Assembly: GCA_965602215.1 (NCBI GenBank)
Contig: CBFCYS010000036.1
Coordinates: 1 to 18,908 of the forward strand
DNA from: an uncultured bacterium
GTDB lineage: Bacteria > RBG-13-66-14 > B26-G2 > WVWN01
Reading direction: 5' to 3'
DNA length: 18,908 nucleotides
Positions 1-18,908 of this stretch are shown here, in pieces. Positions within the stretch are counted from its first letter, which is position 1. Each line of letters starts with the position of its first letter. Made by a program: the position numbers and the translations under genes. Below the pieces are notes generated by a model. The model saw only the letters and a program-made list of their open reading frames with translations. It was not told where the DNA came from and ran no database searches.

Positions 1-60
1 CAACTTGGCGGAGGCGAGGCGCAGCTCCGCCGCGCCACGCCTCAATACGTCAACGATGAC

Positions 61-2091: not shown

Positions 2092-2195
2092 AACGCTCCT
2101 CTCGTCTAATTAATTCCAGCCGGCATAGCCGCAAGCTCCGGCCGCAGTTTCGTATGTGCTCCCTCGGTTAATCGGGGTCTTATCTTAACTTATTT

Positions 2196-3542: not shown

Positions 3543-3574
3543 TTATGGGCTCGTTTCTTTCAAGGGAGACAGAT

Positions 3575-3596
3575 ATCCCGCCGTTGCCGGCGGGAT
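3575..3596 (-). promoter_or_regulatory. Perfect 9-bp inverted repeat (atcccgccg-ttgc-cggcgggat) in the jag-mnmE intergenic spacer
   Basis: It is seen directly in the sequence. It lies 33 nt upstream of the mnmE GTG within an 85-nt spacer in an otherwise tightly packed operon. In the sense direction it is not followed by a strong U-tract. Confidence 0.4.
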
Positions 3597-3627
3597 ACGA
3601 TTTTAAATAATATCAGCTCGCCGGCCG

Positions 3628-4437
3628 TTAGGAGGGCGGCTGGTTTTTTTCCGGGCCGCCGCTCTTGGGCTTGCGGCGGCGGCGGCGGCGCGGGCTCTTG
3701 GAGGGCGGCTTGCCGGCCTTTTCGGCTTCGGACTTCTGGGCGCGCGGCTTACTCGGGGGTCGGGCGCGGCGTTCGCCCTTGGGCTTGCCGGCGGCCTCGG
3801 GCGGCCGTTTGCGCCTGGTCGCGGCGGGGTGGACGACGACGTGGCGCTTGTTGCCGTTGCCCGCGCTCTCGGTCACGACGCGGTCATCGCGCTCGAGCGT
3901 CATGTGGACCGTACGCCGGTCGCGGGGCGTCATGGGGGCGAGCGCCTCCTCCTTACGGTGCAAGACCACCCGGTCGGCGGTAACGCGCGCCAGCCGCCGC
4001 AGCTCCTCTTCGCGCGAGAGCTTGTCCTCGGCGAACGTGGCCTTGACGGCGATTTTATTCTTGGCCCGGCGGTTTATGATGAGCTCGAGGACGTGGGCCA
4101 GCGCGTCGGCGACGTCTTCTTCTTTCTGGAACTGGCGCAGTTCGTGGCCCGCGAGCTCGATGTGGACGCCGTGCTTGTGCATCTCGACGCGGGCTTCGAC
4201 CGGCACCGGCAAGAAGGACACGATGCGGTTAATAATTTCCGCGGTATCCTCGAGGACGTTCTCCTCCACGAGGGTAACGCGGACCGTGACGCGCTTGAAA
4301 CCCAAAAAGCCCAGTATGCCGCGCGGCTCTTCGCGTATTACCTCGACCTTAACGTCGTCCACGTCGGCGCCCAGGAGCTCGAGGGCCCGCCGCGTCGCGT
4401 CCACGCGCGAATTCCCTTCCACTTCGACGGTACGCAT
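3628..4437 (-). CDS. khpB: Jag/KhpB (EloR) RNA-binding protein with a Jag_N domain and KH and R3H domains, plus an unusual roughly 65-aa Lys/Arg/Pro-rich C-terminal tail
   Basis: The N-terminus (MRTVEVEGNSRVDATRRALELLGADVDDVKVEVI) is Jag_N-like. The C-terminal R3H-like block is RRTVHMTLERDDRVVTESAGNGNKRHVVVHP. The ATG at 4437 lies 3 nt after the yidC stop, and a GGAGG RBS sits inside the yidC 3' end. The tail reads ...PSKSPRRRRRRKPKSGGPEKNQPPS. Confidence 0.8.
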   Translation of the reverse strand: MRTVEVEGNSRVDATRRALELLGADVDDVKVEVIREEPRGILGFLGFKRVTVRVTLVEENVLEDTAEIINRIVSFLPVPVEARVEMHKHGVHIELAGHELRQFQKEEDVADALAHVLELIINRRAKNKIAVKATFAEDKLSREEELRRLARVTADRVVLHRKEEALAPMTPRDRRTVHMTLERDDRVVTESAGNGNKRHVVVHPAATRRKRPPEAAGKPKGERRARPPSKPRAQKSEAEKAGKPPSKSPRRRRRRKPKSGGPEKNQPPS

Positions 4438-4440
4438 TTA

Positions 4441-6147
4441 TTAGTTGGCCTCCAGCGGCCGCATTGACTTCCGCATTAAAAGCATCTGACCCATTGTGAA
4501 CAGCTGGTTGGTGGTCCAATAGAGCACGAGCCCCGACGGCCAATTGTAGAAGAGCAGGGTGAAGACGACCGGCAGCCACGCCATGAGTTTCTGCTGCTCG
4601 GACTTGACGCCGCCCTTGCCCGGCATGGTGAACTTGTTCTGCACGACCCAGGCGATGCCCATTATTATGGGCAGAATGTTGACGGTGCCGATGTTGACCA
4701 GCGGGATGGTGAACGGCAGATCGAACAGGACGTCGGGTTGAGAGAGGTCGCTAATCCAGAAGAGGAACGGCGCCCCCTTGAGCTCGATGGCGTTGCGCAG
4801 GGCGTTGAACATCCCCCAGAAGATGGGTATTTGGAGCAGGAGGGGGAGGCAGCCGCCGAACGGGCTTATTTTGTACTTCTTGTACAGCGCCATCGTCTCG
4901 GTGTTCATGCGCTGCGAGTCGCCCTTGTATTGCTCGCGGAGCTGCTTGAGGACGGGCTGGATCTCCTGCATCCGCTGCGAGGATTTCAGCTGGATCGCGG
5001 TGGGCCAATAAGTTAGCAATTTGATAATAAAGGAGAATATGATTATGGTCACGCCGTAGTTGTGGACGACGCCGTTGAGGAGGATTATCAGGCGGAGCAT
5101 CAGCGCGGCGATGACGCCGATGATGGACCAGCCGAGGTCCACCGTTCGCTCCAGGCCGACCTTGAATTCTTTCAGGCGGTCGTACCCCTTGGGGCCGAAA
5201 TAGATCTTGTAGTCGCCGCCGTGCTTGAGGACGTACGTGCCGGCGATGGTGTCGTTCTTGGCGCGCGTCACCGTCAGCTCCCCGCCCTGGGGAGCGACGG
5301 CGGCGATGATGAAGTACTTGCTGCGCAGGGCGGCCCACGGGATGTCGCCGCGGTAGTTTTTGACCTCGTCCTTGCCTGAGAGCTTGTCGTGGATTTTCTT
5401 GGTATCGACCAGCGCGTCGACCGATATTTCGCCCACTTCTTTGGGGTCTTCCTCGGCCTTGACGAACGAGCCCGTCGACAGCGTTACCGGTTTGTCCTCC
5501 TCGCCGGCGACGACGTTAGCGGCCACTTCGTAGTCGTCGCCGCGGAAGACGTACTCGGCGCGGGCGGCCACCCGCTCGCCGTCCACCAGTTTGAATACGA
5601 GCTTGCCGGTCTTGCCGGCGCTTAAGTTCAGCGTCGTGCGGTCGACCTCCCACCGCGCGTTCTCGCTCGCTTCGACCAGCGGCGCGTACGGCGGCGCCCC
5701 GGCCTCGTCGAGGCGGGCGAACAGGAGTTGATCCTCGTCGGGGGGATATTGGGCGAGTTCCAGACGGGCGAGGCCGCCGTCCTCGAAGGTCGCGACGTAC
5801 AACGGCGTCGTTACGACGGCGCGGGCGCCGGTCTTGACGCGTGCGGGTACCTTGGCGGGCGCCGCGGGGGTGGGCTTCTCCGTCGTAGCCGGGGTCGCGG
5901 CGGTTTCGGCGACGGCCGTCCCGGCGCTCGTCTCGGGCGCGCTCGTCTCGGGCGCAGTCGTCTCGGGGGTGACGGTCCCGGGGGCGACCGTTTCCGGCGG
6001 TGCTTTCGCGACGGTCTCGGCCGTGGCCGGTTGTTCGGGCGCTTCCTTTTTATCTTTCTTGGGGCCGAAGAAGGTGGAGTAAGCGAACATCACCGCCGCG
6101 GCAACGAAGAGCGCCAGGATCATGCGTTGTTGGCCCGAAAGTTTCAT
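4441..6147 (-). CDS. yidC: Membrane protein insertase YidC, with a Pro/Glu/Thr-rich repetitive linker after the first TM helix
   Basis: The N-terminal TM is MILALFVAAAVMFAY. The periplasmic domain precedes the conserved C-terminal 5-TM core with the YidC signature ...IPIFWGMFNALRNAIELKGAPFLFWISDLSQPD. The ATG at 6147 has a GAGGAAG RBS. Confidence 0.9.
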   Translation of the reverse strand: MKLSGQQRMILALFVAAAVMFAYSTFFGPKKDKKEAPEQPATAETVAKAPPETVAPGTVTPETTAPETSAPETSAGTAVAETAATPATTEKPTPAAPAKVPARVKTGARAVVTTPLYVATFEDGGLARLELAQYPPDEDQLLFARLDEAGAPPYAPLVEASENARWEVDRTTLNLSAGKTGKLVFKLVDGERVAARAEYVFRGDDYEVAANVVAGEEDKPVTLSTGSFVKAEEDPKEVGEISVDALVDTKKIHDKLSGKDEVKNYRGDIPWAALRSKYFIIAAVAPQGGELTVTRAKNDTIAGTYVLKHGGDYKIYFGPKGYDRLKEFKVGLERTVDLGWSIIGVIAALMLRLIILLNGVVHNYGVTIIIFSFIIKLLTYWPTAIQLKSSQRMQEIQPVLKQLREQYKGDSQRMNTETMALYKKYKISPFGGCLPLLLQIPIFWGMFNALRNAIELKGAPFLFWISDLSQPDVLFDLPFTIPLVNIGTVNILPIIMGIAWVVQNKFTMPGKGGVKSEQQKLMAWLPVVFTLLFYNWPSGLVLYWTTNQLFTMGQMLLMRKSMRPLEAN

Positions 6148-6165
6148 ATTCTTCCTCGGCTCGAG

Positions 6166-6408
6166 CTACGGCACCGGGTCGTAGCCGCCGGCGTTGAGGG
6201 GGTTGCAGCGGATTATACGCAGCGCCGCCAGCGCGGACCCGCGCCACGGCCCGTGCTTGCGGACGGCCTCCAGCGCGTACCTCGAGCACGACGGTTCAAA
6301 GCGGCAGCTCATCGGCATCAGCGGCCCCAGCGTAAACCGGTAGGTGCGGACGAAGGCGACGATTAGCGCCTGCGCGGCCGCGTCAATCGCTCTCTTTAGC
6401 TTTTCCAT
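6166..6408 (-). CDS. yidD: Membrane protein insertion efficiency factor YidD
   Basis: The 80-aa protein carries the conserved YidD motifs CRFEPSCSRYALEA ... RCNPLNAGGYDPVP. It overlaps the 3' end of rnpA, which is the usual arrangement. Confidence 0.85.
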   Translation of the reverse strand: MEKLKRAIDAAAQALIVAFVRTYRFTLGPLMPMSCRFEPSCSRYALEAVRKHGPWRGSALAALRIIRCNPLNAGGYDPVP

Positions 6409-6772
6409 ATTTGCCGCGGGTCAGCTCCGCCAGCGCCGCGACGACGTCTTTCTCCAGCGTCTTGAAATTTCGGTCGGATATCGGCGGCTTCGCCACCGCG
6501 ACGAACCAGAAGCCGTCCCGAAAGAGTTCCGGGTGGGTCCGGAAGATATCGCGGAGGCGCCGCTTCGCGCGGTTCCGCACCACCGCTTTCCCCACGCGCC
6601 GGCCGCATACTACGCCCAGCAACCTCCCCTCGCCCGAAACGGGAAGGCAGTGGATGACGAACGCATCCCCGGCGACGGTCCGGCCGTCGCGGATGGTGCG
6701 CGCGAAGTCCCGGCGGCGCCGCATACGCACGGCCCGCGGGAAGCGGAAGTCTCGTTCGTCGTTACCGGCCAA
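6383..6772 (-). CDS. rnpA: Ribonuclease P protein component RnpA. The start is uncertain: candidates are TTG 6772, GTG 6730 and ATG 6724.
   Basis: The basic motif RFPRAVRMRRRRDFARTIRDGRTV...VGKAVVRNRAKRRLRD matches the RnpA RNR/KRR signature. The ORF-track start at 7027 would run through rpmH and is rejected. The true start must lie after the rpmH stop at 6780. Confidence 0.75.
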   Translation of the reverse strand: MAGNDERDFRFPRAVRMRRRRDFARTIRDGRTVAGDAFVIHCLPVSGEGRLLGVVCGRRVGKAVVRNRAKRRLRDIFRTHPELFRDGFWFVAVAKPPISDRNFKTLEKDVVAALAELTRGKYGKAKESD

Positions 6773-6779
6773 GGCAGCG

Positions 6780-6917
6780 TCATACCGTAAGGCGTTTGCG
6801 CCCCTTCGCCCGGCGGCGGCGCATAACGCGACGGCCGCCCGGCTTGGCCATGCGGCTCCGGAAGCCGTGAACGCGGCCGCGGCGGCGCCGCGACGGTTGA
6901 TAAGTCCTCTTGGGCAA
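6780..6917 (-). CDS. rpmH: 50S ribosomal protein L34 (not in the ORF track; found by manual translation)
   Basis: The minus-strand reading starts with TTG at 6917-6915, 9 nt downstream of a perfect AAAGGAGG RBS. It translates to [45 protein letters not shown], ending with TGA at 6782-6780. This is the canonical L34 sequence and length. It sits immediately upstream of rnpA, as expected. Confidence 0.85.
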
Positions 6918-6945
6918 GCTTTACCTCCTTTTCGAACCGGCCTCG

Positions 6946-7950
6946 TTAGCTCAAAACCGCGTCTGCGGCGCGAATGACGTCGGCCGGCGAAAGGTCCACC
7001 ATACAACGGAAATGTTTCTCCGGACATTTGCGGCCGCCGTGAGCGCCGCAGGGCCGGCAGGGCAAACCCGCAACCTCGGCCACCGCCGACCGGCCGGCCA
7101 GCGGCGCGAACCCCTGCGCCGGGACCGTCGCGCCGAACACCGCCACGGTGGGCGTGTCGAACGCCGAGGCGACGTGCACCGGCGCGCTGTCGTTGGACAC
7201 CAGCAGCGCCGCTTCCGCCACGAGCGCGGCCAGCTCGCGCGCGGTCGTCTTCGCCGCCAGGTTGACGGCCGGCGCATCCATGGCCGCGGCCATCGCGGCC
7301 GCCTCGTCGCCTTCGCCCGGGCCCCCCGTTATTACGACGCCGTAGCCGCGCGCCGCCAGGTGGTCCGCCACCGCGGCGAACCCCTCGGCCGTCCAGCGCT
7401 TCGTGGGCCAGGCCGACGACGGCGATATAACGACGTACGGCTCGGCACCCGCGGCCTTGCGCGCCGCTTCCCGCTCGTCGTCGCCGAGGGCCAGCGTCGG
7501 CCGGGGGTCCGCGTCGCGGCTCCCCATCGCCTCCGCCAACGCCAGTATCCGCTCCGCTTCGTGCCGCTCGGGCGGCCTGGGGACGCGCTCCGTATACAAC
7601 AGCGACAGCGCGTTCTCGCGGTAGCCCACGCGCCGCGGCGCGCCCGACGTCCAGGCTATCACGCTCGAGCGCGCGGAGCGATGCGGCGACACGACGACGT
7701 CGAACTCCCTCGCGCGCACCTCTTTTATTGCCCTCCCCAGTTCGCCCGGGCCGCCGGCCCGTTTATCGTGCACTATTATTTCGTCCAACTCCGGCAGGCG
7801 CTCCAGAATGGGAGCCGTCTCCGGTATCACCAGCGCCGCCAGGTGCGAGCCGGGCCACATTCTATTTAAAGCCCGGAACAGCGGCGTCGTCAGTACGACG
7901 TCGCCCAGGAACGCCGTTTGGATGACGAGCACCCGGGGCCCGTCCTTCAC
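6946..7950 (-). CDS. Glycosyltransferase family 9 (ADP-heptose:LPS heptosyltransferase-like, WaaC/WaaF family)
   Basis: The GT9 hallmark N-terminus RVLVIQTAFLGDVVLTTPLFRAL and the C-terminal motifs LVSNDSAPVHVASAFDTPTVAVFG are present. The start is placed at GTG 7950-7948. This forms a GTGA overlap with the TGA stop (7949-7947) of the upstream paralog, which suggests translational coupling. The longer ORF-track start at 8154 would overlap the upstream gene by 200 nt and carries a non-GT9 N-terminal extension. Confidence 0.75.
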   Translation of the reverse strand: MKDGPRVLVIQTAFLGDVVLTTPLFRALNRMWPGSHLAALVIPETAPILERLPELDEIIVHDKRAGGPGELGRAIKEVRAREFDVVVSPHRSARSSVIAWTSGAPRRVGYRENALSLLYTERVPRPPERHEAERILALAEAMGSRDADPRPTLALGDDEREAARKAAGAEPYVVISPSSAWPTKRWTAEGFAAVADHLAARGYGVVITGGPGEGDEAAAMAAAMDAPAVNLAAKTTARELAALVAEAALLVSNDSAPVHVASAFDTPTVAVFGATVPAQGFAPLAGRSAVAEVAGLPCRPCGAHGGRKCPEKHFRCMVDLSPADVIRAADAVLS

Positions 7951-8945
7951 GCCGCCCCCAGCATCTCGCGCGCCGCCGCGGCTACCGCCGCGGGTTGGAT
8001 ATCCTCCATACAACGGCGCCGCGCGCGCCAGCAAGGCCGCCGGCCGTGTTTGCTGCACGGGCTGCACCGCGGCTCGAGGTATATCGTCCGGTCGCGCGCG
8101 CCCCACGGCGCGAAGCCGAACCGCGGCGACGTGGGCCCGAAGAGGGCCAGGCACGGCACGTCCACCAGCGGCGCGAGGTGGTTCATCGCCGAGTCGTTGC
8201 CGACGAGCAGTGCCGCGCCCCGGAGCGCTTCCGGAAGCTCGCCGACGGCGACCCGGCCCGCGAGGTTAAGCGCGCCGTCAATGCCCGCGGCCGCCTCCTC
8301 GCACAGCGGCCTTTCGGTTTCGTCCCCCAGGAGCAACAGGCCGTGTCCCTCGGCCGCGAGGGCCTGCGCCAGCTCGCGCCAGCGCGCGGCGGGCCAGGCC
8401 TTGGCGGCGTGGCGGGCCCCGGGCGCGAGCGCTACCCTACCGGGCGTCAGGCCGCGCTGCCGGAGCTTCTCGGCCGCGGCCTCGTCTTCCACCAGGCGGA
8501 ACGACCAGTCCGGCCCCGTTACCCCCCACTTCGCCGCGGTGCGCGCGTACAACTCGGGCACCCGGAGCGTCGGTTTGGGTAACAAGTCTATGCCGAGCGC
8601 CGCCAGGAGCCAGCGCCGGACGCCGTATTTGGGGTACCGGAATTTCTCGTACGCGCTGACGTGGCTCGCGACGTACCGCGCCAGCGGCACGCCGTGCCAG
8701 TCCAATATTATATCCGGCTTAATTTCATCGTTCAGCCGGCGTATCAGCTCGTTAATCGCGCCCTCGGCCTTTTCGCCCCGGCTCGGCATCGTCGCGACGA
8801 CGTCCACCGCGGGGTGGCGCGCCGCGAGCGGCGCCCACTCCTGCCGCGTTACGAACGCCAGCGACGCCCCCGTCGCCTTGGCCACCGGCCCCAGCGCCGG
8901 CAGCGTCAACAATACGTCGCCCAGCGACGAGAGCCTTATAATCAC
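7947..8945 (-). CDS. Glycosyltransferase family 9 (heptosyltransferase-like), second copy
   Basis: The ORF starts with GTG at 8945. The N-terminus IIRLSSLGDVLLTLPAL and the C-terminus LLVGNDSAMNHLAPLVDVPCLALFGPTSP fit the GT9 WaaC/WaaF-like pattern. It is in the same frame as mlaE and starts 11 codons after the mlaE stop. Confidence 0.75.
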   Translation of the reverse strand: MIIRLSSLGDVLLTLPALGPVAKATGASLAFVTRQEWAPLAARHPAVDVVATMPSRGEKAEGAINELIRRLNDEIKPDIILDWHGVPLARYVASHVSAYEKFRYPKYGVRRWLLAALGIDLLPKPTLRVPELYARTAAKWGVTGPDWSFRLVEDEAAAEKLRQRGLTPGRVALAPGARHAAKAWPAARWRELAQALAAEGHGLLLLGDETERPLCEEAAAGIDGALNLAGRVAVGELPEALRGAALLVGNDSAMNHLAPLVDVPCLALFGPTSPRFGFAPWGARDRTIYLEPRCSPCSKHGRRPCWRARRRCMEDIQPAAVAAAAREMLGAA

Positions 8946-8978
8946 GCACGTTATCGGGCTGCGATTGATCGTTTTCCG

Positions 8979-9788
8979 TTAATAGTTGCTGCCCACGAAG
9001 AGGCCCGTCAGGAACACGTCGGACAACAGGATGAGTATGCAGGAAGTGACGACCGATATCGTGGTCGCGCGGCCCACGCCCTCCGCGCCGCCCCGGGCCT
9101 TGAAGCCCTGGTTGCAGCCGACGATGGCGATTATCACGCCGAATACGACGGTTTTTAAAAGGCCTATCATGAGGTCGCTCACGTGGACCAGTTGGTTCAT
9201 CTTCTCTATATATACGCCCGGGTTTATGCCGAGCGTCGTCGTCGAGATGGCGTAGCCGCCCGCGATGCCTACGAAGTCCGCCAGCGCGGTGAGGGCGGGG
9301 AGCATGATGGCGGCGGCGACGAGTCGCGGCATTACCAGGTACTGGACGGGGTTGGTGGCGAGGGTCTCCAGCGCGTCCACTTGCTCGGTGACCTTCATCG
9401 TCCCGATTTCCGCGGCGATGGCGGCCCCCACCCGCCCCGAGACCATAAGCGCCGTGAGCACCGGCCCCAGCTCGCGCGTCATCGAGATGCCGACGATGCC
9501 GCCTATGTATATGTCGGCGCCGAACTTCGCTATCTGATAGGTGGCCTGCAGCGCCAGGACCATGCCGGTGAAGACGGCCGTAAGTATTACGACCGGCACG
9601 GAGTCGACGCCGATCCGCACCATCTGTTCGATTATACGCGCCGGCTTGAACGGCCGCTTAAATACGGAACGGACGGCTTTGACGAGAAGCATCGTCGAGC
9701 CGCCGATGTCCTCGAGCAGGTATATAATTACCCGCCCGAACCGCTCGAACCAGAATAATAGAAACATAAAGCAGCCGGCCTTCGGCAA
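8979..9788 (-). CDS. mlaE: MlaE-family ABC transporter permease (phospholipid/toluene-tolerance Ttg2B-like). The start may be at an internal Met.
   Basis: Blocks conserved across MlaE are present: RIIEQMVRIGVDSVPVVILTAVFTGMVLALQ ... ELGPVLTALMVSGRVGAAIAAEIGTMKVTEQVDALETLA. There are six predicted TM segments. No mlaF or mlaD gene is adjacent. Confidence 0.8.
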   Translation of the reverse strand: MPKAGCFMFLLFWFERFGRVIIYLLEDIGGSTMLLVKAVRSVFKRPFKPARIIEQMVRIGVDSVPVVILTAVFTGMVLALQATYQIAKFGADIYIGGIVGISMTRELGPVLTALMVSGRVGAAIAAEIGTMKVTEQVDALETLATNPVQYLVMPRLVAAAIMLPALTALADFVGIAGGYAISTTTLGINPGVYIEKMNQLVHVSDLMIGLLKTVVFGVIIAIVGCNQGFKARGGAEGVGRATTISVVTSCILILLSDVFLTGLFVGSNY

Positions 9789-9851
9789 ATTCTAAAGAGT
9801 CAGAGTCTAACATACGCACCAACTCGTTTCAACCTCAAACGCCGCCGCCCC

Positions 9852-10667
9852 TTACCGCCGCGTTAATTCCTTATATACCAAGCGTTTTGTTACGTCGAAC
9901 GTACGCGCCGCCACCGCCGCCGCGCGGGCCGCAGGCAGCCCTTCCGCCACGAGTTCCCGCGCGAGTTTGACCGCGGAGGCCGCGTCCGGCGCTTCGGCGG
10001 CCGCGGCGACCACCAGCGTCATCTCCCCCTTGAGCTCCCGTGCGCGCGCGCCGTCCGCGATGGCGCTCAACGTGCCGCGGATTACCTCCTGGTGGACCTT
10101 CGTCAGCTCGCGCGCCAGCGCCGCGTCGCGGTCGCCCCACAACTCGCGCGCGTCGGCCAGCTCCGCCGCCAGCCGGTGCGGCGTTGCGAAGACGACGAGC
10201 GTCGCCGGCAGCGCCCGGTAGCGTTCCAGGAACGTACGCCGCTCGGCGCGCCGCCGCGGTAGATATCCGAGGAAGGCGTACGGGTAGGGCGGCAGGCCGC
10301 TCAGCGCGAGGGCGGCGTGCACCGCCGACGGCCCGGGTACGAAGTCCACCGCGACGCCGGCTGCGAGCGCTTTGCGCAGTATTACGTACCCCGGGTCGGC
10401 CAGCAGCGGCGAGCCGGCGTCGGTGACGAGCGCGACGGTTTCGCCGCGTTTGAGGCGGCTCAGGACTTTGGCGGCGGCGGCGGCCTCGTTGTGCTCCGCG
10501 TATATTAATAGGCTTTTCTGAAGGCCGAGGTGGGCGAGCAGCTTGGCGGTGCGGCGGGTGTCCTCGCAGGCGACGACGTCGGCCGACGCGAGGGCCTCCC
10601 GCGCCCGGGCGCTGACGTCGCCCAGGTTGCCTATAGGCGTCGCGACGAGGATTAGTTTGCCGGGCAT
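9852..10667 (-). CDS. rsmI: 16S rRNA (cytidine1402-2'-O)-methyltransferase RsmI (tetrapyrrole methylase fold)
   Basis: The N-terminus GKLILVATPIGNLGDVS...ADVVACEDTRRT is the RsmI signature. The ATG at 10667 lies 15 nt after the nadE stop. Confidence 0.85.
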   Translation of the reverse strand: MPGKLILVATPIGNLGDVSARAREALASADVVACEDTRRTAKLLAHLGLQKSLLIYAEHNEAAAAAKVLSRLKRGETVALVTDAGSPLLADPGYVILRKALAAGVAVDFVPGPSAVHAALALSGLPPYPYAFLGYLPRRRAERRTFLERYRALPATLVVFATPHRLAAELADARELWGDRDAALARELTKVHQEVIRGTLSAIADGARARELKGEMTLVVAAAAEAPDAASAVKLARELVAEGLPAARAAAVAARTFDVTKRLVYKELTRR

Positions 10668-10682
10668 AAATATGCGGGGTGG

Positions 10683-11504
10683 TTAAAACACCTGCGGTAG
10701 CTCGATGCGCTTTGTTATGGTCTTGCCCGTGACGGAGGCGATTATAGGCACCTTACGCTTGAAGAGGTTGCGGTTGACAAGGCCGACGACGCGCCGCTGG
10801 AAGTCGGCGTCGAAGCCGCGCTCCAGCAGCTTCGCGGGCTTCTCGCCCTTCTCGACGAGGTAATATAAATACCGGTCGACCTGGAAGTAGGAGATGCCCA
10901 TCTCGCCCTCGTCCGTCTGCCCGGGCCAGAGGCCGGCGGAGGGCGCCTTTTGTATAATCCGCTCGGGGACGCCCAGCGCCTCCGCCAGGAGGTACACCTG
11001 CCCTTTATATAAATCCGCCAGCGGCGCGATGGAGCAGGCCGCGTCGCCGAAGAGCGTGAAGTAGCCCAGCAGGAGCTCGGTTTTGTTGCCGGTGCCCATG
11101 ACTATGGCCTTCGCTTCTTTGGACCGGTCGAAGAGGACGATCATACGCGCGCGGGCGCAGACGTTGCCGCGCCGCACGTCGTCCACCTCGCCCGCCTGCG
11201 CCAGGTACGCGTCCGTCATCGGCGTTATCGATATCTCTTTGAAATTAATGCCGAAGCGTTCGACGACGGCCTGCGCGTCGCCCTGGTCGCTCTGGTCGTA
11301 GTAGGGGAGCCAGACGCCGGTGACGTTCTCGGGGCCGAGGGCGGCGGCGGCCAGGCCGGCGGCGGTCGCGGAGTCCACGCCGCCGGATATTCCCAGCACG
11401 ACGCCCTCCAGGCCGGCGTCGTCGACGTGGCGTTTGATGAACCGCTCCAGCACGGGCCGGACGAGGGCGACGTCGATAGTTAGTTCCTTGGGGCACTTTT
11501 CCAT
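10683..11504 (-). CDS. nadE: NH3-dependent NAD+ synthetase NadE
   Basis: The PP-loop GISGGVDSA and the NadE-like blocks (WLPYYDQSDQ, MGTGNKTELLLGYFTLFGD) are present. The start is placed at ATG 11504, which has an AAGGAG RBS 6 nt upstream. The ORF-track start at 11579 adds 25 aa that are not conserved. Confidence 0.85.
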   Translation of the reverse strand: MEKCPKELTIDVALVRPVLERFIKRHVDDAGLEGVVLGISGGVDSATAAGLAAAALGPENVTGVWLPYYDQSDQGDAQAVVERFGINFKEISITPMTDAYLAQAGEVDDVRRGNVCARARMIVLFDRSKEAKAIVMGTGNKTELLLGYFTLFGDAACSIAPLADLYKGQVYLLAEALGVPERIIQKAPSAGLWPGQTDEGEMGISYFQVDRYLYYLVEKGEKPAKLLERGFDADFQRRVVGLVNRNLFKRKVPIIASVTGKTITKRIELPQVF

Positions 11505-11536
11505 AAACCTGCTCCTTGCGGCGACGCGGTATACAG

Positions 11537-11664
11537 CAAACCTTCTTCGATAAAATAACATATAGCGCAGGTGCTTCAAGGGGAAACTACGCCGACCCTC
11601 GCCGCCGCCGCGAAGGGTTCCCTCTGCCGCGCCGCCCTATCGGTAAGGGCTTCGGTGTTTTTTT
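11537..11664 (+). promoter_or_regulatory. Conserved upstream element, copy A. It has promoter-like boxes (CAAACCTTC, then 18 nt, then TATAGC), a roughly 60-nt GC-rich conserved core, and a hairpin with a T7 run that looks like a terminator.
   Basis: Copy B at 13786-13920 has the same architecture and spacing. The core cgccgccgcgaagggttccctc (11603-11624) is identical in both copies. GGGAA (11581-11585) and TTCCC (11618-11622) can form a stem enclosing the core. The hairpin gccct-N7-agggc (11634-11650) is followed by ttcggtgttttttt. Confidence 0.5.
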
Positions 11665-11753
11665 ATGTTTGAGTCGACGTTAATAAATCGTATGTTTAAG
11701 TGTAATTATCGCCGGCGGGTTAGGTTGCCGTTTTAAAATCGATGGGAGGTTTC

Positions 11754-13754
11754 GTGGGAGAATCGGAACGGAACCGAAAGTTAACGGCGCGGGACCGTTG
11801 GTTCGCGGCGGCTATGACGGTGGCGTTGGCCGCGCTGTACTTCGCGTTGCGGTCGCGGGATATCGGCTACGACGCGGTCGCGTATTGCTCGGTAGCCGAT
11901 ACGCCGTCGTTCGGTCGCTTATTCCACCAAAACCACCCCCTTCTTACGCCGGCGTTTTGGTGCGTAATGCGGGTGGTCCGCGGCCTTGGGTACGCCGGTT
12001 CGTCGCTGACGCCGCCGGCGGCGCTCTCGGCGTTGTGGGCGGGAGCGGCGTCAGGGGGTTTCTATCTCGTCCTCCGTCGCATCGGCGCGCGTCCGGCCTC
12101 CGCCGCGCTCGCGGTCGCGGCGGCGTCTTTTTCCGCGGCGTGGTGGTATTTCGCGGGGTTGGCCGAGCCGGTGGCGTGCATATTGTTCTTCATCGTCGGT
12201 GCGTTGTTCCTGGTGGCGCCGTGGCCGCCGTCGTGGCGTCGCGCTTTGGCCGTCGGCTGCTGGTTGGGCATCGGTACGTGGTTCCACGTTACGGTGGCCC
12301 TGTTTATCCCCGTCGCCGGGGTATTGGTCGCCGGGGGCCGCGGGGGGAGGTGGGGCCGGTGGGCGGCCTTGTTCGCGGCTTACGCCGTGACCGCTTCCGC
12401 GGCGTACGCGGTGATAAGCCAATGCGTTTTACGGCACGAAGGGCTCGCGGCTTTCTGGGATTGGATTAACTCCTATAGAAGTCATTCCGACGCGTACGGG
12501 TCTTTAACCGCAAGCCGGGTCCCCGACGGCCTTCTCCAGATCCTGGTCGCGTCCGTAGCGCCGCGGCGGGAGTTGCATTTAGAGTCCATTCACATGGGAT
12601 TCGGCACCGCCGCGTTTAAGTTCGCCCCGGCGGCGGCGTTGGTGGGGGTCGCGCTGGTTACGATCGGCGTCGCCGTACGCCGCCTGTGGCGGGAGCACCG
12701 GCGTTGGCTCGTAGCGGCCGCCGTGTGGTTCGTAAGCTACCAGCTGTTTTTTACGTGGTGGGAATCGGGCAACAACTCGTGGTGGGCCGGCGTAACGCTG
12801 CCGGTATGGTTGCTCTTCGCCCTCGCGGCGCCCGCACGTCGGGTTTTCCTAATCCCCTTTGGCGCGGTCGTGTTAGTAGCGGCCGGCGTCAACTTCGATC
12901 GCGTAATCCTACCCTCGAGCCGGCCCGGCCACAACGGCGCCGAGAACGCGGCCCGCGTGTTCATCGCGGCGAGCCGCCCCGGCGACAATCTTTGGGTACC
13001 CCACAGCGCCGTCGAGCTTTGGATAAGGCACCTTACCCGCGACGACCGGCCGTTGACCAAGACCGGCCTGGGGACTATCCCGGGGTCTTATACCGGTCGC
13101 GCCGTTTCGTTGGCCAGGCGCGGCCGGGCCAATGCGCCTGCGGGCGCCGACGTGTACTTGACTGATTACGAGCTCGACAACCCGCGCTTGGGTAAGGGCC
13201 GCCGGGCGAGAGCGGCCAAGAAGGCGTTTTTTAAAATCCTCCGGAACGCCGAACCGGTGACGTTGACGTATTTCTACGGCCGGCCGCGCGTGCTGTACCG
13301 CTACCGCGGCGCGGCCGAGTTCGGGTCGTTGAGGATTTACGAGGCGGAACGCGGGACGCGCGATAACGAATTTAGGGTGCTCGACCGGCCGGGGTGTGCC
13401 GAGCGGTTTAAGGTCAAGATACTAGAGAAGGGCCGATACGTAATCAGCGTTCAAGCGAGCGGTACGCCGGCGAGGGGCGAGTGGCCGGCGGCGTCCGTGG
13501 CCGTAGACGGTGACGTCCTGTCGACGTTCGCGGTCACGAGCGATTACTGGTGGTTTTACGATACGAGAACGACACTCGACCCCGGGAAGCACGAGATAAA
13601 GGTTATCTTGCGGAACGGCTTACCGGACCGCGCCACGGGCGAAACGCGCGTCCTGTACGTTAATCGGCTCGCGATATACCGCGACCCGGCGGAAGGCCGC
13701 GGCGCGAACCCGGCCGCGCCGGAGAAGGACGAGCGGAGGCCGAAGGAGAGATAG
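11754..13754 (+). CDS. Polytopic membrane protein, paralog 1. It has about 11 predicted TM helices and a C-terminal beta-sandwich domain of roughly 250 aa that resembles a carbohydrate-binding module (CBM6/CBM35-like). Its function is unknown. It may be a GT-C-type glycosyltransferase.
   Basis: The GTG at 11754 is preferred because it is preceded by a GGGAGG RBS and its N-terminus VGESERNRKLTARDRW aligns with the paralog start VEGVERRQSLAARDRW. An alternative ATG lies at 11742. The first-loop motif D-A...S-x-D-x-P..G..FHQNH..TP is conserved. The C-terminal block GRYVISVQASG...VAVDGDVLSTF...DYWWFYDT...GKHEIKVILRNG has a CBM-like VDG/aromatic pattern. Confidence 0.7.
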   Translation: MGESERNRKLTARDRWFAAAMTVALAALYFALRSRDIGYDAVAYCSVADTPSFGRLFHQNHPLLTPAFWCVMRVVRGLGYAGSSLTPPAALSALWAGAASGGFYLVLRRIGARPASAALAVAAASFSAAWWYFAGLAEPVACILFFIVGALFLVAPWPPSWRRALAVGCWLGIGTWFHVTVALFIPVAGVLVAGGRGGRWGRWAALFAAYAVTASAAYAVISQCVLRHEGLAAFWDWINSYRSHSDAYGSLTASRVPDGLLQILVASVAPRRELHLESIHMGFGTAAFKFAPAAALVGVALVTIGVAVRRLWREHRRWLVAAAVWFVSYQLFFTWWESGNNSWWAGVTLPVWLLFALAAPARRVFLIPFGAVVLVAAGVNFDRVILPSSRPGHNGAENAARVFIAASRPGDNLWVPHSAVELWIRHLTRDDRPLTKTGLGTIPGSYTGRAVSLARRGRANAPAGADVYLTDYELDNPRLGKGRRARAAKKAFFKILRNAEPVTLTYFYGRPRVLYRYRGAAEFGSLRIYEAERGTRDNEFRVLDRPGCAERFKVKILEKGRYVISVQASGTPARGEWPAASVAVDGDVLSTFAVTSDYWWFYDTRTTLDPGKHEIKVILRNGLPDRATGETRVLYVNRLAIYRDPAEGRGANPAAPEKDERRPKER

Positions 13755-13770
13755 CCGCGCCCGTACGCGG

Positions 13771-13785
13771 CGACGGGGTACGTCG
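13771..13785 (+). terminator. Hairpin immediately downstream of paralog 1 (cgacg-gggta-cgtcg). It has no U-tract and abuts the promoter-like box of element copy B.
   Basis: It is a perfect 5-bp inverted repeat with a 5-nt loop, 17 nt after the TAG stop. Confidence 0.3.
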
Positions 13786-13920
13786 GAAACCTTCCCCGGC
13801 AAAGTAACTTATAGCAGGGGCACTTTAAGGGAAAACGCGCCGGCCCCCGCCGCCGCGAAGGGTTCCCTCCCTTGCGTTACGCGGGCCGTAGAATCCCGGC
13901 CCCCTATTTTGTATTTAATT
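13786..13920 (+). promoter_or_regulatory. Conserved upstream element, copy B. It has GAAACCTTC, then 18 nt, then TATAGC, followed by the conserved core and then a hairpin gggccg-N8-cggccc with a T-rich tail.
   Basis: It aligns with copy A. The core cgccgccgcgaagggttccctc (13849-13870) is identical. GGGAA and TTCCC flank it in the same way. The 6-bp perfect stem at 13883-13902 is followed by cctattttgtatttaattt. Confidence 0.5.
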
Positions 13921-14042
13921 TGGCGCCGATGTGTTGTATAGTAATGTCCTTATTCTCGGCGGTAGCTTCGGTCGGCCGCCGAGGCGGCGTTTGGGGCCGC
14001 GCTTAGGACAGGCGGCTATTATAAGGATCAGGAGGAAGCTTC

Positions 14043-16010
14043 GTGGAAGGAGTAGAACGGAGGCAATCGCTGGCGGCGCGGGACCGTTGGGTGGCGGTCT
14101 TCGTGGCGGTAGGCTTGGTCGTATTATATTACGCTTTCAGAACGCATTATCACCACTGCGACGCCATTAAGACGGCGACGAGCATAGACGCGCCGGAAAT
14201 AGGGATTTTTTTACACCAGAATCACCTCGCATTTACTCCCATAATTTGGCTTCTCGTAAAAGGCTTGCGCGCCCTCGGCTGGGGCGGTTCGCCGTTGGCC
14301 GTGGCCGCGGCCGCATCGTCTATTTTCACGGGCGCCGCCGCGGGCGGGTTCTTCCTCTTCCTGCGGCGAATCGGCGTAACCTTCCGGACGGCTTTACTCG
14401 CGTTGGGCGCCGCGACGGCTTCGGCGGCGTGGTGGTTTTACGCCGGGGGGGCGGAGCAACGCTCGGCAATCCCGTTCATTATCGTGGGGGCGTTGCTGCT
14501 GTTGGCGACGCCGGCGCGCCGATGGTATTCGGCGGCGGCGGTTGCGGTTTGGCTTGCGGTAGGAGCGTGGTTTCATATTTCGATAACGCTTTTCTTCCCC
14601 GTCGCCGCCATATTACTGGCTCAGAACAAGGAAGGGCGATGGTTGCGTTTATCGGTTTTCGGGGCGATTTACGCCGTCCTGGCCTTCGTACCGTACGTGT
14701 TTGTCTTTCGGGTATTTTATCACGGTACCCAGGGCGAAACATTTTATAAGTGGATAACCTTCCTGCATTGGTGGGGAGGGTGGGGACAACTCGATTGGAT
14801 TAGGTTTTGGGAAGGCGCGCTGCGTTTGATGGCGGCCGCGGTCGCGCCGGGGAACGGTTTAAATTGCTTGTTGACCGGCATTAGCCGGGCCGAATTCTTA
14901 CCGCGGCTTGGGCCGGGGGTCGTATTTTTAGCGGCGGTGATAGCGGTCATCGCCGTCCGGGGGAAGCGTTTGTGGCGGGAAAAGAGGTGGTGGCTCGCCG
15001 CGGGGATAACCTGGTTCCTCGTTTACCATATCTTCTTTTCGTGGTGGGCGCCCCAGAACGCGGAATGGTGGGTCGCGACGATAATGCCGTTGTGGATACT
15101 ATTCGGTTTAGCGGCGCCGCCGCGTCTCTCTTTCGTCGTGCCGGCCGCGGCGTTAATATTGTGCGTGGCCGGGGTTAATTTCACTCGTTTAATACTACCT
15201 ACCAGCCACCCGGGCGTAGACCCGGCCGAGCGGACGGCCCGCGCAATCGCGGCCGCGACGGAGCCGGGAGACGTTATTTTAATTTCGCGTATGCGCGTGA
15301 AGATCTGGATCGACAACCAGACGAAGCGCACCCGGGTAGTTATGGGTTCCGGCGGCCATAGTGACCTCAAAAAAGTCAAAAAGTTCATTAGGAAATATAC
15401 CCGCCCCTCGCCGGAATTTAAGGGCGGTCGCGGCAATGCTTTCCTCACGGATTACGAAATGGACAACTGGGACCTGGACCCGGCGGCCGAGGGAGATCAA
15501 GTACGGGCGTCGCTGTTCCGTGTCATACGTAACGCCGAGCCGGTGGCGTTGGTACCGTTCAACGGATGGCCGAGGGTCTTGTACCGCTGTCGCGGGAAGG
15601 CCAAGCTTGAATCGCTGAGGATTTACGAAGCGAAGCGCGGGACGCGTAAAGGGGGCTTTAAACTTCTTCGAGAGGCAGGAGAGGCTAAGGTGTTTGCAAT
15701 CAAAGTGCCGGAGGAGGGCCGGTACGTAATCTGCTTACAGGCTCGCGGTACGCAGGCGAAGGGCGAATGGCCCGCCGTACGCGTCGTCGTGGACGGGAAA
15801 GTGTTATCGAAGTTCGACGTCAAGACGCATTACTGGTGGTTTTACGATACTACGGCCCGACTCGGCGCCGGTAAGCACAAGGTCAAGGTCTTTTTACGCA
15901 ACGGCTGGCGGGACCCCGCCACGGGCGAGGAGCGCTTCCTGTATCTGAACCGGCTTATCATATACCGCGACCCGGCGGAAGGCCGCGGCGAGGGAGAGCC
16001 GCCCGGCTAA
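14043..16010 (+). CDS. Polytopic membrane protein, paralog 2. It has the same architecture as paralog 1. Identity is about 45% in the TM region and higher in the C-terminal domain. It has a noticeably lower GC content and is Lys-rich.
   Basis: The GTG start at 14043 lies 6 nt after an AGGAGGA RBS. The N-terminal, loop-1 (HQNH), WW-rich TM core and C-terminal (YWWFYDT, LRNG, IYRDPAEGRG) motifs are shared with paralog 1. Confidence 0.7.
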   Translation: MEGVERRQSLAARDRWVAVFVAVGLVVLYYAFRTHYHHCDAIKTATSIDAPEIGIFLHQNHLAFTPIIWLLVKGLRALGWGGSPLAVAAAASSIFTGAAAGGFFLFLRRIGVTFRTALLALGAATASAAWWFYAGGAEQRSAIPFIIVGALLLLATPARRWYSAAAVAVWLAVGAWFHISITLFFPVAAILLAQNKEGRWLRLSVFGAIYAVLAFVPYVFVFRVFYHGTQGETFYKWITFLHWWGGWGQLDWIRFWEGALRLMAAAVAPGNGLNCLLTGISRAEFLPRLGPGVVFLAAVIAVIAVRGKRLWREKRWWLAAGITWFLVYHIFFSWWAPQNAEWWVATIMPLWILFGLAAPPRLSFVVPAAALILCVAGVNFTRLILPTSHPGVDPAERTARAIAAATEPGDVILISRMRVKIWIDNQTKRTRVVMGSGGHSDLKKVKKFIRKYTRPSPEFKGGRGNAFLTDYEMDNWDLDPAAEGDQVRASLFRVIRNAEPVALVPFNGWPRVLYRCRGKAKLESLRIYEAKRGTRKGGFKLLREAGEAKVFAIKVPEEGRYVICLQARGTQAKGEWPAVRVVVDGKVLSKFDVKTHYWWFYDTTARLGAGKHKVKVFLRNGWRDPATGEERFLYLNRLIIYRDPAEGRGEGEPPG

Positions 16011-16029
16011 AGCTAATCCCCGTTCCCGC

Positions 16030-16058
16030 TTGACTAATCAGTAGGTTTCCCCTATCCT
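16030..16058 (+). promoter_or_regulatory. Sigma-70-like promoter for polA (TTGACT, then 17 nt, then TATCCT). It is positioned for a leaderless transcript.
   Basis: The -35 box TTGACT is at 16030-16035. A 17-nt spacer follows. The -10 box TATCCT is at 16053-16058. The predicted +1, 7 nt after the -10, coincides with the A of the polA ATG at 16065. There is no Shine-Dalgarno sequence upstream of the ATG. Confidence 0.45.
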
Positions 16059-16064
16059 TCGCGT

Positions 16065-18662
16065 ATGAAGAAGCGCCGCCTCCTGGTCGTCGACACGATG
16101 AACCTTGTCTTCCGCGCGTACTACGCGCTCATCGGCAGGCCCCTCCGCACCACCGACGGCCGCAATACCTCCGCCGTCTTCGGCTTCGCGCGGATGCTGC
16201 TCAAGGCGCTGGCCGAATACCAACCCACCCACGTCGCCGTCGCGCTGGAGGGCGGCGGCCCCTCCTTCCGCGAGGAAATTTACCCGGAGTACAAGGCTAC
16301 GCGTAAAACCCCGCCCGACGACCTCATCGCGCAGATAGAACCCATCAAAGAGTTCGCCCGGCTGCTGGGCCTGGCCGTCGTCGAGAAGGAGGGGATGGAG
16401 GCCGACGACGTGGTCGCGACGCTCGCGCGCGGCGGCGCCGGCCGCTTCGACGACGTGCTCATACTCTCGGGCGACAAGGATTTGATGGCGCTGGTGGGCG
16501 GCGGCGTTAAATTGTTCGCGCCCAGGACCGGCGTCTCCGACGTCGACGAGATGGACGCCGCGGCGGTGGAGGCCAAGATGGGGGTCCCGCCGGCCGCGGT
16601 GCCGGACCTCCTGGCGCTGGAGGGCGACAGCGTCGACAACGTCCCCGGCGTCCCCGGCATCGGCGAGAAGACGGCCCGGGCGCTGCTCGAGCGGTACGGC
16701 TCGCTCGACGCCGTGTTCGAGCACGTCGACGACGTGGAGCCCAAGCGCGCGCGGGCGGCGCTCGAGAAAGGCCGCGCGTCGGCCGAGCTTTCGCGCGCGC
16801 TGGTCGGGCTCCGGGGCGACCTCGAGCTGGGCCTGGACGCCGCGGCGCTCGAGCCCCGGGCCCGGGACGAGGAAGCGCTGCGCTCCTTTTTGAAAGAATA
16901 TGAGCTCAAGACGCTGGCGGAGGAGCTGGGCGTCGGCGCGGCGCCGGCGGACGAGCTGAAGCCGGATCTGGTCTCGGCCGAGGAGCTCGCGCCCACGGCG
17001 CCGGAGTCGGGGGACGAATGGCTCGGCCTGGAGGCCGTCGTACGGGCGGGGGAGTTCGCGGGGGCGGCGCTGGCGGCGGGGCCCGAGCGCGTGACGCTGC
17101 TCGACGGTTCGCCCGCCGACGTCGCCCGCAAGCTCGAGAAAATTTACGGGGAATCCGAGCTGCCGCTCGCGGGGCACGACACCAAGCGGCTGATTCACAT
17201 GTTGGGGTCCGACGTCAAGTTCGACGGCGACACCATGCTCGCCGCGTACCTCCTCAACCCCGAGCGCGTGAACTACCGGCTGGCCGACCTGGCGTACGAG
17301 TACCTCAAGGTCCACCTCCCCGCGGAGGAGGCGGAGGGGGAGCTGGCGTTCGGCGAGGGCGCGGCCGAGGATGCCGCGGCTCGAGCGCAGGCCGTGGCCC
17401 GGTTGGCCGAGGTGACGGCGCGCCTCGTCGAGCAGCAGGACATGGGCGAGCTCTACCGCGACCTGGAGGTCCCGCTGGCGCCGGTGCTGGCCGCGCTTGA
17501 GGAGCGCGGCGTCAAGATAGACCGGCCCCACTTCGCCAGGCTGGCGCGGAGCTTCGAGAAGCATTTGAAGAAGGCCGAGGGCGAGCTGTACGAGCTGGCG
17601 GGCGGCGAGTTCAACCCCAACTCGCCGAAACAGCTGCGGGAAATACTCTTCGACAAGCTGGGCCTGAAGCCCGCGCGCAAGACCAAGACCGGCTACTCCA
17701 CCGCGGCCGACGTCCTGGAATCGCTGGCCGAGGAACACCCCCTCCCCGCCAAGATATTGGCGTACCGCGAGCTGGCCAAGCTCAAGAACACGTACGTCGA
17801 CGTCCTGCCGACGCTGGCGGACGAGAATGGCCGCGTCCACACGACGTTCAACCAGGCCGCGACCGCCACCGGCCGCCTGAGCTCCACCGACCCCAACCTC
17901 CAGAACATCCCCATCCGGACGGACCTCGGCGCCGAGATACGCAAGGGCTTCATCCCCGGCGACGGCCTGGTCTTCCTGTCGGCGGACTACGCGCAGGTGG
18001 AGCTCCGCATCCTGGCGCACGTCGCCGACGACCCGGGCCTGCAGCAGGCCTTCGCCGAGGGCAAGGACATCCACGCCGCGACGGCCTCGGAGCTGTTCGA
18101 CGTCCCGTTCGACCGCGTGAGCCGCGAGCAGCGGACGCTGGCGAAAGCCATCAACTTCGGCCTGGCGTACAAGATGGGGCCGCGGCGCCTCGCTCGCGAG
18201 GCCGGCCTCTCGATCAAGGAGGCGGAGGCGTACATCGAGAAATATTTTACGCGCTACCCGGGCGTCCGCCGCTTCATCGACGAGGAGATCGAGCGGGCGC
18301 ACCGGGAGGGCTACGTCCACACCGTCCTGGGCCGCCGGCGCTACCTGCCCGACATCGCGTCCGACAACAGCCGCGCCCGGGCCGCGGCCGAGCGCGTCGC
18401 CGTGAACATGCCCATCCAGGGGTCGGCCGCGGACATCCTCAAGCTCGCGATGGTGGCGCTCGCGCGCCGCCTGCGGGGCGAGACGCTGCAGGCGTGGATG
18501 CTGTTGACCATCCACGACGAGCTGCTGTTCGAGGCGTCGCCCGGCGACGTCGCCGCGCTGGAGGAATTGGTCAAAGAAGAGATGGTCGGCGTTTTAAATC
18601 TTAAGGTCCCGCTGGAAGTCCACGTGGGCGTAGGCGCCAACTGGCTCGAGGCGCACGGATAG
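16065..18662 (+). CDS. polA: DNA polymerase I (PolA). It has a 5'-3' exonuclease domain, a vestigial 3'-5' exonuclease domain and a family-A polymerase domain.
   Basis: The N-terminal FEN domain is LLVVDTMNLVFRAYYAL...GDKDL...GVPGIGEKTA. Pol motif A is DYAQVELRILAH. Motif B is RTLAKAINFGLAYKMG. Motif C is TIHDELLFE. The 865-aa Taq-like organisation lacks the Exo I DxE motif. Confidence 0.92.
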   Translation: MKKRRLLVVDTMNLVFRAYYALIGRPLRTTDGRNTSAVFGFARMLLKALAEYQPTHVAVALEGGGPSFREEIYPEYKATRKTPPDDLIAQIEPIKEFARLLGLAVVEKEGMEADDVVATLARGGAGRFDDVLILSGDKDLMALVGGGVKLFAPRTGVSDVDEMDAAAVEAKMGVPPAAVPDLLALEGDSVDNVPGVPGIGEKTARALLERYGSLDAVFEHVDDVEPKRARAALEKGRASAELSRALVGLRGDLELGLDAAALEPRARDEEALRSFLKEYELKTLAEELGVGAAPADELKPDLVSAEELAPTAPESGDEWLGLEAVVRAGEFAGAALAAGPERVTLLDGSPADVARKLEKIYGESELPLAGHDTKRLIHMLGSDVKFDGDTMLAAYLLNPERVNYRLADLAYEYLKVHLPAEEAEGELAFGEGAAEDAAARAQAVARLAEVTARLVEQQDMGELYRDLEVPLAPVLAALEERGVKIDRPHFARLARSFEKHLKKAEGELYELAGGEFNPNSPKQLREILFDKLGLKPARKTKTGYSTAADVLESLAEEHPLPAKILAYRELAKLKNTYVDVLPTLADENGRVHTTFNQAATATGRLSSTDPNLQNIPIRTDLGAEIRKGFIPGDGLVFLSADYAQVELRILAHVADDPGLQQAFAEGKDIHAATASELFDVPFDRVSREQRTLAKAINFGLAYKMGPRRLAREAGLSIKEAEAYIEKYFTRYPGVRRFIDEEIERAHREGYVHTVLGRRRYLPDIASDNSRARAAAERVAVNMPIQGSAADILKLAMVALARRLRGETLQAWMLLTIHDELLFEASPGDVAALEELVKEEMVGVLNLKVPLEVHVGVGANWLEAHG

Positions 18663-18725
18663 CGGGAGATTTATAGAAAATAAAGCTTATAAGAAAATAG
18701 GAAGATGTAAAAGGAGTCGTTCTAA

Positions 18726-18908
18726 GTGGAAGACCTTAGAGTTTTAAAATACCGACCAAGTTACGTAAATAACCTTCCTAAAGCAAAAGTAACGAGACCT
18801 GAGGCGTTATTCGTTAACGCTTTTATTAAGTATATTAAGGGAAATGGCTTTCCTATGATTAAGAAGACAATTAACCCGCGATTAATAAAGGAATTCGAAG
18901 TCGAAGGA
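18726..18908 (+). CDS. 5' end of an AT-rich, Lys-rich ORF of unknown function (truncated by the window end). It is likely part of a horizontally acquired region.
   Basis: An AAGGAG RBS is at 18711-18716. The GTG at 18726 lies 9 nt downstream. Sixty-one sense codons follow with no stop in DNA of about one-third GC, where stops should be frequent. The sequence reads VEDLRVLKYRPSYVNNLPKAKVTRPEALFVNAFIKYIKGNGFPMIKKTINPRLIKEFEVEG.... An alternative ATG lies at 18855. Confidence 0.35.
   Translation, partial: MEDLRVLKYRPSYVNNLPKAKVTRPEALFVNAFIKYIKGNGFPMIKKTINPRLIKEFEVEG

Follow-up and report, generated by a model that had tools for sequence, protein, structure and literature searches.

Strain-specific islets occur at hot spots beside housekeeping genes, as with SCCmec at the 3' end of rlmH and the islands linked to transfer RNA (tRNA) and transfer-messenger RNA genes. 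Foreign DNA is also taken up by homology-facilitated illegitimate recombination, known from Acinetobacter and Streptococcus pneumoniae, in which one homologous anchor is combined with one illegitimate joint. Contigs built by SPAdes are reported to be unreliable towards their ends, where chimeric sequence was found (PMC8172020). Here, we analyze an 18,908-nucleotide (nt) stretch of DNA from an uncultured bacterium (contig CBFCYS010000036.1 of assembly GCA_965602215.1; "the window" hereafter, meaning the whole stretch), which ends in an AT-rich tail of 246 nt directly behind polA, the gene for DNA polymerase I. With moderate confidence, we regard the joint between polA and the tail as real, and as a very recent, strain-specific acquisition of foreign DNA of low guanine plus cytosine (GC) content in one haplotype of a Candidatus Zixiibacteriota population.

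The last native gene of the window is polA (16065-18662, forward strand), whose product of 865 amino acids (aa) matches the Pfam families 5_3_exonuc_N, 5_3_exonuc and DNA_pol_A (E-value of 3e-154 for DNA_pol_A). The GC content is 0.661 over positions 1-18662 and 0.346 over positions 18663-18908, and the drop sets in 4-8 nt past the TAG stop codon of polA (18660-18662). The minimum for any 246-nt stretch before position 18300 or so is 0.48. This confirms the abrupt fall right after polA reported in a preliminary description of the same DNA, which was made from the letters alone. The GC content at third codon positions (GC3) is 0.93 in polA and 0.40 in the open reading frame (ORF) carried by the tail. 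The tail is foreign to the host genome by composition and codon usage, and in this respect has the atypical composition of a genomic island.

Sister contigs, found by exact-protein look-up, come from one ENA study and were assembled per sample at 5-7x coverage; the study comprises assemblies ERZ25073472-90 and is apparently the dataset of the Logan contigs from the SRR262156xx runs. Three of them (L088, L089 and L090) extend past polA and are 99.3-99.6% identical to the window up to the last base of the TAG codon, at 18662, where homology stops exactly, as assessed by blastn; homology to L081 likewise ends at 18662. After the stop codon, the three contigs continue with TTTAACC, and a gene for a 233-aa LolA-like protein follows 30 nt downstream. 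A scan of polA in species representatives gave six genomes of Candidatus Zixiibacteriota (L001 to L006) as the nearest, with polA identities of 79-92%. The AT-rich DNA is missing at this locus in L088, L089 and L090 and in the six more distant genomes, the absence from close relatives that is typical of a genomic island. Its absence from the sister strains shows that it is not part of the core genome, a possibility that the preliminary description had raised against its own interpretation.

The window also differs from its sisters within polA. When 8 kb were compared with three sister assemblies, five single-nucleotide polymorphisms (SNPs) were private to the window, and two of these (18599 and 18626, forward strand) fall within the final 64 nt of polA; the SNP at 18602 is also present in one sister. 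That the private SNPs are all synonymous third-position changes indicates that they are true polymorphisms and not read errors. The window bears its own polA haplotype beside the joint.

In the assemblies compared, the position behind polA is a variable slot in the clade. The slot is empty, with polA leading straight into a lipoprotein gene, in L001, L002 and L003. It holds the LolA-like gene together with a 67-aa ORF in L081, L088 and L090, and the LolA-like gene also lies directly after polA in L004, L005 and L089. A third state is found in L006, where a low-GC gene for a 905-aa N6-methyltransferase-like protein lies between duplicated polA 3' ends, and the AT-rich DNA of the window is the fourth. 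Downstream of the slot, L081 and L088 share with L006 an orthologous lipoprotein gene (69% identity) and a tRNA-Leu(UAA) gene. The LolA-like gene (14651-15352 in L081) has a GC content of about 0.47-0.58, below that of its flanks, and is absent from L001, L002, L003 and L006. This low GC content and patchy distribution suggest that the gene, too, could have arrived in the slot, at an earlier time.

The third state provides a precedent in the lineage for low-GC cargo directly behind polA. In L006 (metagenome-assembled genome contig JAUWLW010000006.1), direct copies of the last 72 nt or so of polA, 80% identical to each other, are found at 12527-12598 and 15353-15424. The insert between them (12599-15352, 2.75 kb) consists of the single 905-aa gene, which gives weak N6-adenine methyltransferase and type IIG signals, and no recombinase was found between the two copies. 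The functional polA copy is lower in GC and its product ends in GIGYNWLDAHR, whereas the remnant is host-like, high in GC and ends in GVGKNWLEAHG. The insert looks like a capture with a donor-derived polA end. A perfect 44-nt repeat of the polA end in Providencia burhodogranariea (L038, 12803-12965) was rejected as a similar case, because its copies border a stretch of N: the apparent att duplication is an artefact of scaffolding.

In the tail, a Shine-Dalgarno-like AAGGAG (18711-18716, forward strand) is separated by a 9-nt spacer from a GTG start codon, from which an ORF runs without a stop for 61 codons up to the window edge (18726-18908, forward strand). Both the ribosome-binding site and an ORF of more than 60 codons had been noted before, together with the view that such a length is unlikely to arise by chance. 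The calculation bears this out: given the base composition, 61 codons without a stop in one frame have a probability of 0.005, and the 243 codons to which the ORF extends in a second contig (L087, described below) one of 4e-9. Because the 243 codons are open in L087, the 61 codons seen here represent the start of a real gene, P0001. The description of the ORF as rich in lysine holds only to a moderate degree, as lysine accounts for 8 of the 61 residues and for 11.5% of full-length P0001. Two short direct repeats, TTATAGAAAATA (18671-18682) and TTATAAGAAAATA (18687-18699), both on the forward strand and read by eye, are located just upstream of the ORF, as reported. No role is shown for them, and a repeat search of the window did not flag them as exceptional. 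L087 carries both of them unchanged, which makes them a native part of the AT-rich DNA.

P0001 is an orphan. When the 61 residues were used as a HMMER query against 1.84 billion representatives, the single match was P0001 itself (243 aa, identical over residues 1-61), and a word-indexed search with the same fragment found no homologue. Within a collection of some 15 billion proteins the full-length protein forms a singleton, and no relatives were found in IMG/VR or in JGI contigs. Searches of P0001 against Pfam, PHROG, PADLOC and NCBIfam gave nothing above threshold. Residues 82-141 or thereabouts, which lie beyond the window, gave weak winged-helix matches that were consistent across libraries (TrmB with an E-value of 0.003, HTH_23, Sta1, Cbp1, Lrs14 and PDB entry 1sfx), all of them below threshold; the sole PADLOC match was also to a weak Csa3-like winged helix (E-value of 0.002, residues 80-147). 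P0001 is probably a DNA-binding protein of foreign origin with a winged-helix domain, as these matches suggest. The segment GIADFIF...WAFEAKV might be taken for a PD-(D/E)xK motif, which is a reading by eye only. A single-sequence AlphaFold model was unusable (predicted local distance difference test score of 34).

The idea that the tail carries cargo of the defence or phage type found no support. P0001 has no significant match to a PADLOC defence model and none to a PHROG, and L087 shows no similarity to phage or plasmid DNA; the tail alone gives only low-complexity phage matches of 21-33 nt. In the collections searched, no exact DNA matches to the AT-rich DNA were found beyond L087. Moreover, the ORFs that neighbor P0001 in L087 have no family matches, and the one that was searched, a 105-aa fragment, has no homologues.

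L087, the only contig with P0001, is 1232 nt long, has 2.4x coverage and a GC content of 38%, and comes from the same study and from the same sample as the sister contig L089. The foreign segment of the window (18667-18908, forward strand) is 100% identical to positions 143-384 of L087 over 242 nt, as determined by blastn. Upstream of this, positions 1-142 of L087 have a GC content of 28%, are not polA, and belong to an ORF of at least 73 codons (gene call at 2-223) that continues past the breakpoint and into the first codons of P0001; the chance that an ORF of this length is open by accident is 2e-4. According to frame translations, the window retains the cut 3' end of this ORF, 27 codons and a TAA stop (18664-18747, forward strand). 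That the ORF runs over the breakpoint in L087 indicates that the order in L087 is native to the AT-rich DNA and that the order in the window is derived. At the joint, the bases CGGG (18663-18666) match neither the sister strains, which have TTTA, nor L087, which has TTAT. The AGCGGGA at the joint (18661-18667) recurs as the 7 nt that follow the window end in L087 (385-391). The place of this match is odd, and it could be templated filler; the coincidence was not significant in a whole-contig scan.

A further feature spans the junction. It is an inverted repeat whose left arm lies in the polA 3' end (18583-18608, forward strand), where it reaches into the beginning of the stretch that L006 carries twice. 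The right arm lies at the start of the foreign ORF (18732-18758, forward strand), and its reverse complement, TGGTCGGTATTTTAAAACTCTAAGGTC, agrees with the polA arm in 23 of 27 positions. The score of this repeat (arms of 26 and 27 nt) was reached by 8 of 6000 dinucleotide shuffles (p of about 0.001), and the RNA fold has a z-score of -2.96. Each arm is already present in its own separate context, so the match must predate the joining of the two DNAs; it may point to a relation between the polA end and the foreign DNA that is not random.

If the joint is real, the foreign piece would occupy the slot between polA and the conserved lipoprotein and tRNA-Leu genes, where the sisters hold the LolA-like gene. 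Three components of it would then be visible to us: the truncated 3' end of a foreign gene, a spacer of 63 nt that holds a strong ribosome-binding site, and 61 codons from the start of P0001. The location of the joint inside a donor gene, the four unmatched bases and the lack of an att repeat argue for illegitimate or homology-anchored recombination, or for a deletion in a larger island, rather than for site-specific integration. Insertion may have proceeded with polA as the homologous anchor; alternatively, the window may be a deletion derivative of a larger island, of which L087 could be a longer version present in a minority strain. L087 is not decisive against a real island. Neither a sigma-70-like promoter nor an intrinsic terminator was found in 18400-18908, and since no terminator follows polA, read-through from polA is possible. 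P0001 could be transcribed in this way and translated from its own AAGGAG.

Several observations weigh against this interpretation. The 242 nt of the tail are found without a mismatch on a separate contig of the same study, at 2.4x coverage, with an AT-rich coding flank upstream, and in the very sample that yielded L087, a Zixibacteriota contig (6.5x) runs from polA into the LolA-like gene. In the collections searched, the joint between polA and the AT-rich DNA was found in no second assembly. A GC gap of about 30 points, together with the difference in GC3, is extreme for DNA that resides in a host, and the tail is short and lies at the extreme end of the window. Finally, no integrase, tRNA gene or flanking direct repeat was found in the window or in the 1.2 kb of L087. 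The proposal of a laterally acquired island thus stands as regards foreign composition, absence from relatives and a variable slot, but the integrase, tRNA and att repeat that would go with it were not seen.

That the same 242 nt are present on a separate low-coverage contig with another upstream flank makes a mis-joined contig end a serious rival explanation, which the preliminary description had not considered. According to this explanation, the AT-rich DNA comes from another organism or replicon of the same community, low in both abundance and GC content and represented by L087, and was joined to polA by a chimeric library fragment or by an assembler error at low coverage, so that nothing of the kind lies behind polA in any cell. 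We consider this a substantial possibility, somewhat short of even. Each half occurs apart from the other, polA with the LolA-like gene in three samples and the tail with its AT-rich flank in L087, and the breakpoint cuts a donor gene. The sisters have 5-7x coverage and L087 2.4x, and with a depth of about 2x an assembly path would be expected to take in a few hundred foreign bases before it breaks. A random chimera, however, would have a prior probability of a few percent or less of breaking at the point seen here, directly behind the stop codon of an essential gene and in an intergenic position of 30 nt, whereas a viable insertion in vivo has to spare polA. No k-mer common to both contexts is found across 18663-18666, and the best match of the junction elsewhere in L087 is at chance level. 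This excludes a graph misjoin and leaves only a chimeric fragment, for which the four unmatched bases would be unexpected in a simple ligation. Moreover, the private synonymous SNPs beside the joint show a genuinely distinct haplotype, the locus is known to be variable from independent genomes, and the 27-nt inverted match would need to be a coincidence. On balance, the island interpretation, in favor of which it also counts that P0001 is a real gene, is plausible without being proven, and the likelihood of a chimeric end is almost as high.

A more ambitious version of a real joint is that the polA 3' end serves repeatedly in Zixibacteriota as a site at which single low-GC cargo genes are captured without a recombinase, with the inverted 27-mer aiding either targeting or polA-coupled expression through a long-range RNA hairpin (18583-18608 with 18732-18758). 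We regard this as quite improbable. Least probable of all is a precise site-specific element, such as a prophage, an integrative and conjugative element or an integrase-borne island, with the polA 3' end as its attachment site and the window as its left end: although the L006 gene between its two polA ends resembles an attL/attR arrangement, and the same stretch of polA contains the left arm of the inverted repeat as well as private SNPs of the window, the final 33 nt of polA in the window do not differ from those of strains that lack the insert and no element-borne replacement end is evident, the joint interrupts a donor ORF, no recombinase was found in the window, L087 or the L006 insert, L087 has no polA-like segment in direct orientation beside the breakpoint, and the polA-like 27-mer is inverted and 70 nt from the joint. 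In what is visible of the AT-rich DNA, the tail and L087, this inverted 27-mer is the only match to the polA 3' end, with no copy in direct orientation. By eye, neither an integron attC core (GTTRRRY/RYYYAAC) nor the 5' end of a group II intron was seen, and terminal inverted repeats and insertion sequence signatures were not seen either.

The remainder of the window is a core chromosomal region, with an SPFH-domain gene, mnmE, jag, yidC, yidD, rnpA, heptosyltransferase genes, mlaE, nadE, two CBM60-like genes and polA; no tRNA genes or Rfam families were found in it or in L087. The CBM60-like genes, which lie upstream of polA (11742-13754 and 14043-16010), are paralogues of about 655-670 aa with weak CBM60 matches, and have in common a stretch of about 470 nt with 73% DNA identity (13242-13704 and 15528-15990). 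At the other end of the window, four sister contigs from different samples have their ends between 2688 and 3381, all within mnmE or the adjacent region, which suggests a strain-variable or hard-to-assemble spot there.

Whether the joint is real or chimeric, the feature is of a known, ordinary kind. If real, it would be a further example, from an uncultured phylum, of DNA acquired across lineages very recently. Lying in the variable slot that follows polA, it would bring an orphan DNA-binding gene without relatives among some 15 billion predicted proteins, and would be of modest interest for the population genomics of Zixibacteriota. If chimeric, it is a caution only, in that an abrupt GC shift in the final few hundred bases of a low-coverage contig calls for a read check before an island is named.

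Set against described systems, the window shares with chimeric ends of short-read de Bruijn metagenome contigs a terminal position, a sharp composition break, low coverage and halves that lie apart, with other neighbors, in sister assemblies. It differs from them in that the break falls at a stop codon in a variable slot, that a distinct haplotype lies at the joint, and that the joint holds no repeat or k-mer that could mislead the assembly graph. Compared with the islets at housekeeping genes, no recombinase or att repeats are visible here, the joint lies in a donor gene with four unmatched bases, and only 246 nt can be seen. Like those islets, however, the tail is of atypical composition, lies directly 3' of a conserved gene and is missing from strains that are almost identical, and the clade varies at the locus, with a tRNA-Leu gene a few kb downstream in the relatives. 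The insert of L006 carries an unrelated gene (BLASTP against P0001 gives an E-value of 0.016 over 42 residues), is 10 points higher in GC, and has a polA 3' duplication that the visible part of the window lacks. Yet it lies at the same locus, is also below its host in GC content (0.40-0.49 and 0.62, respectively), and begins within about 16 nt of the polA stop codon with a strong ribosome-binding site. Homology-facilitated illegitimate recombination fits the L006 insert, which has no recombinase and is bordered by a duplicated polA 3' end that has diverged. In the window a single joint is visible; here too polA could serve as the anchor, and it is in this anchor, beside the foreign DNA, that the SNPs cluster.

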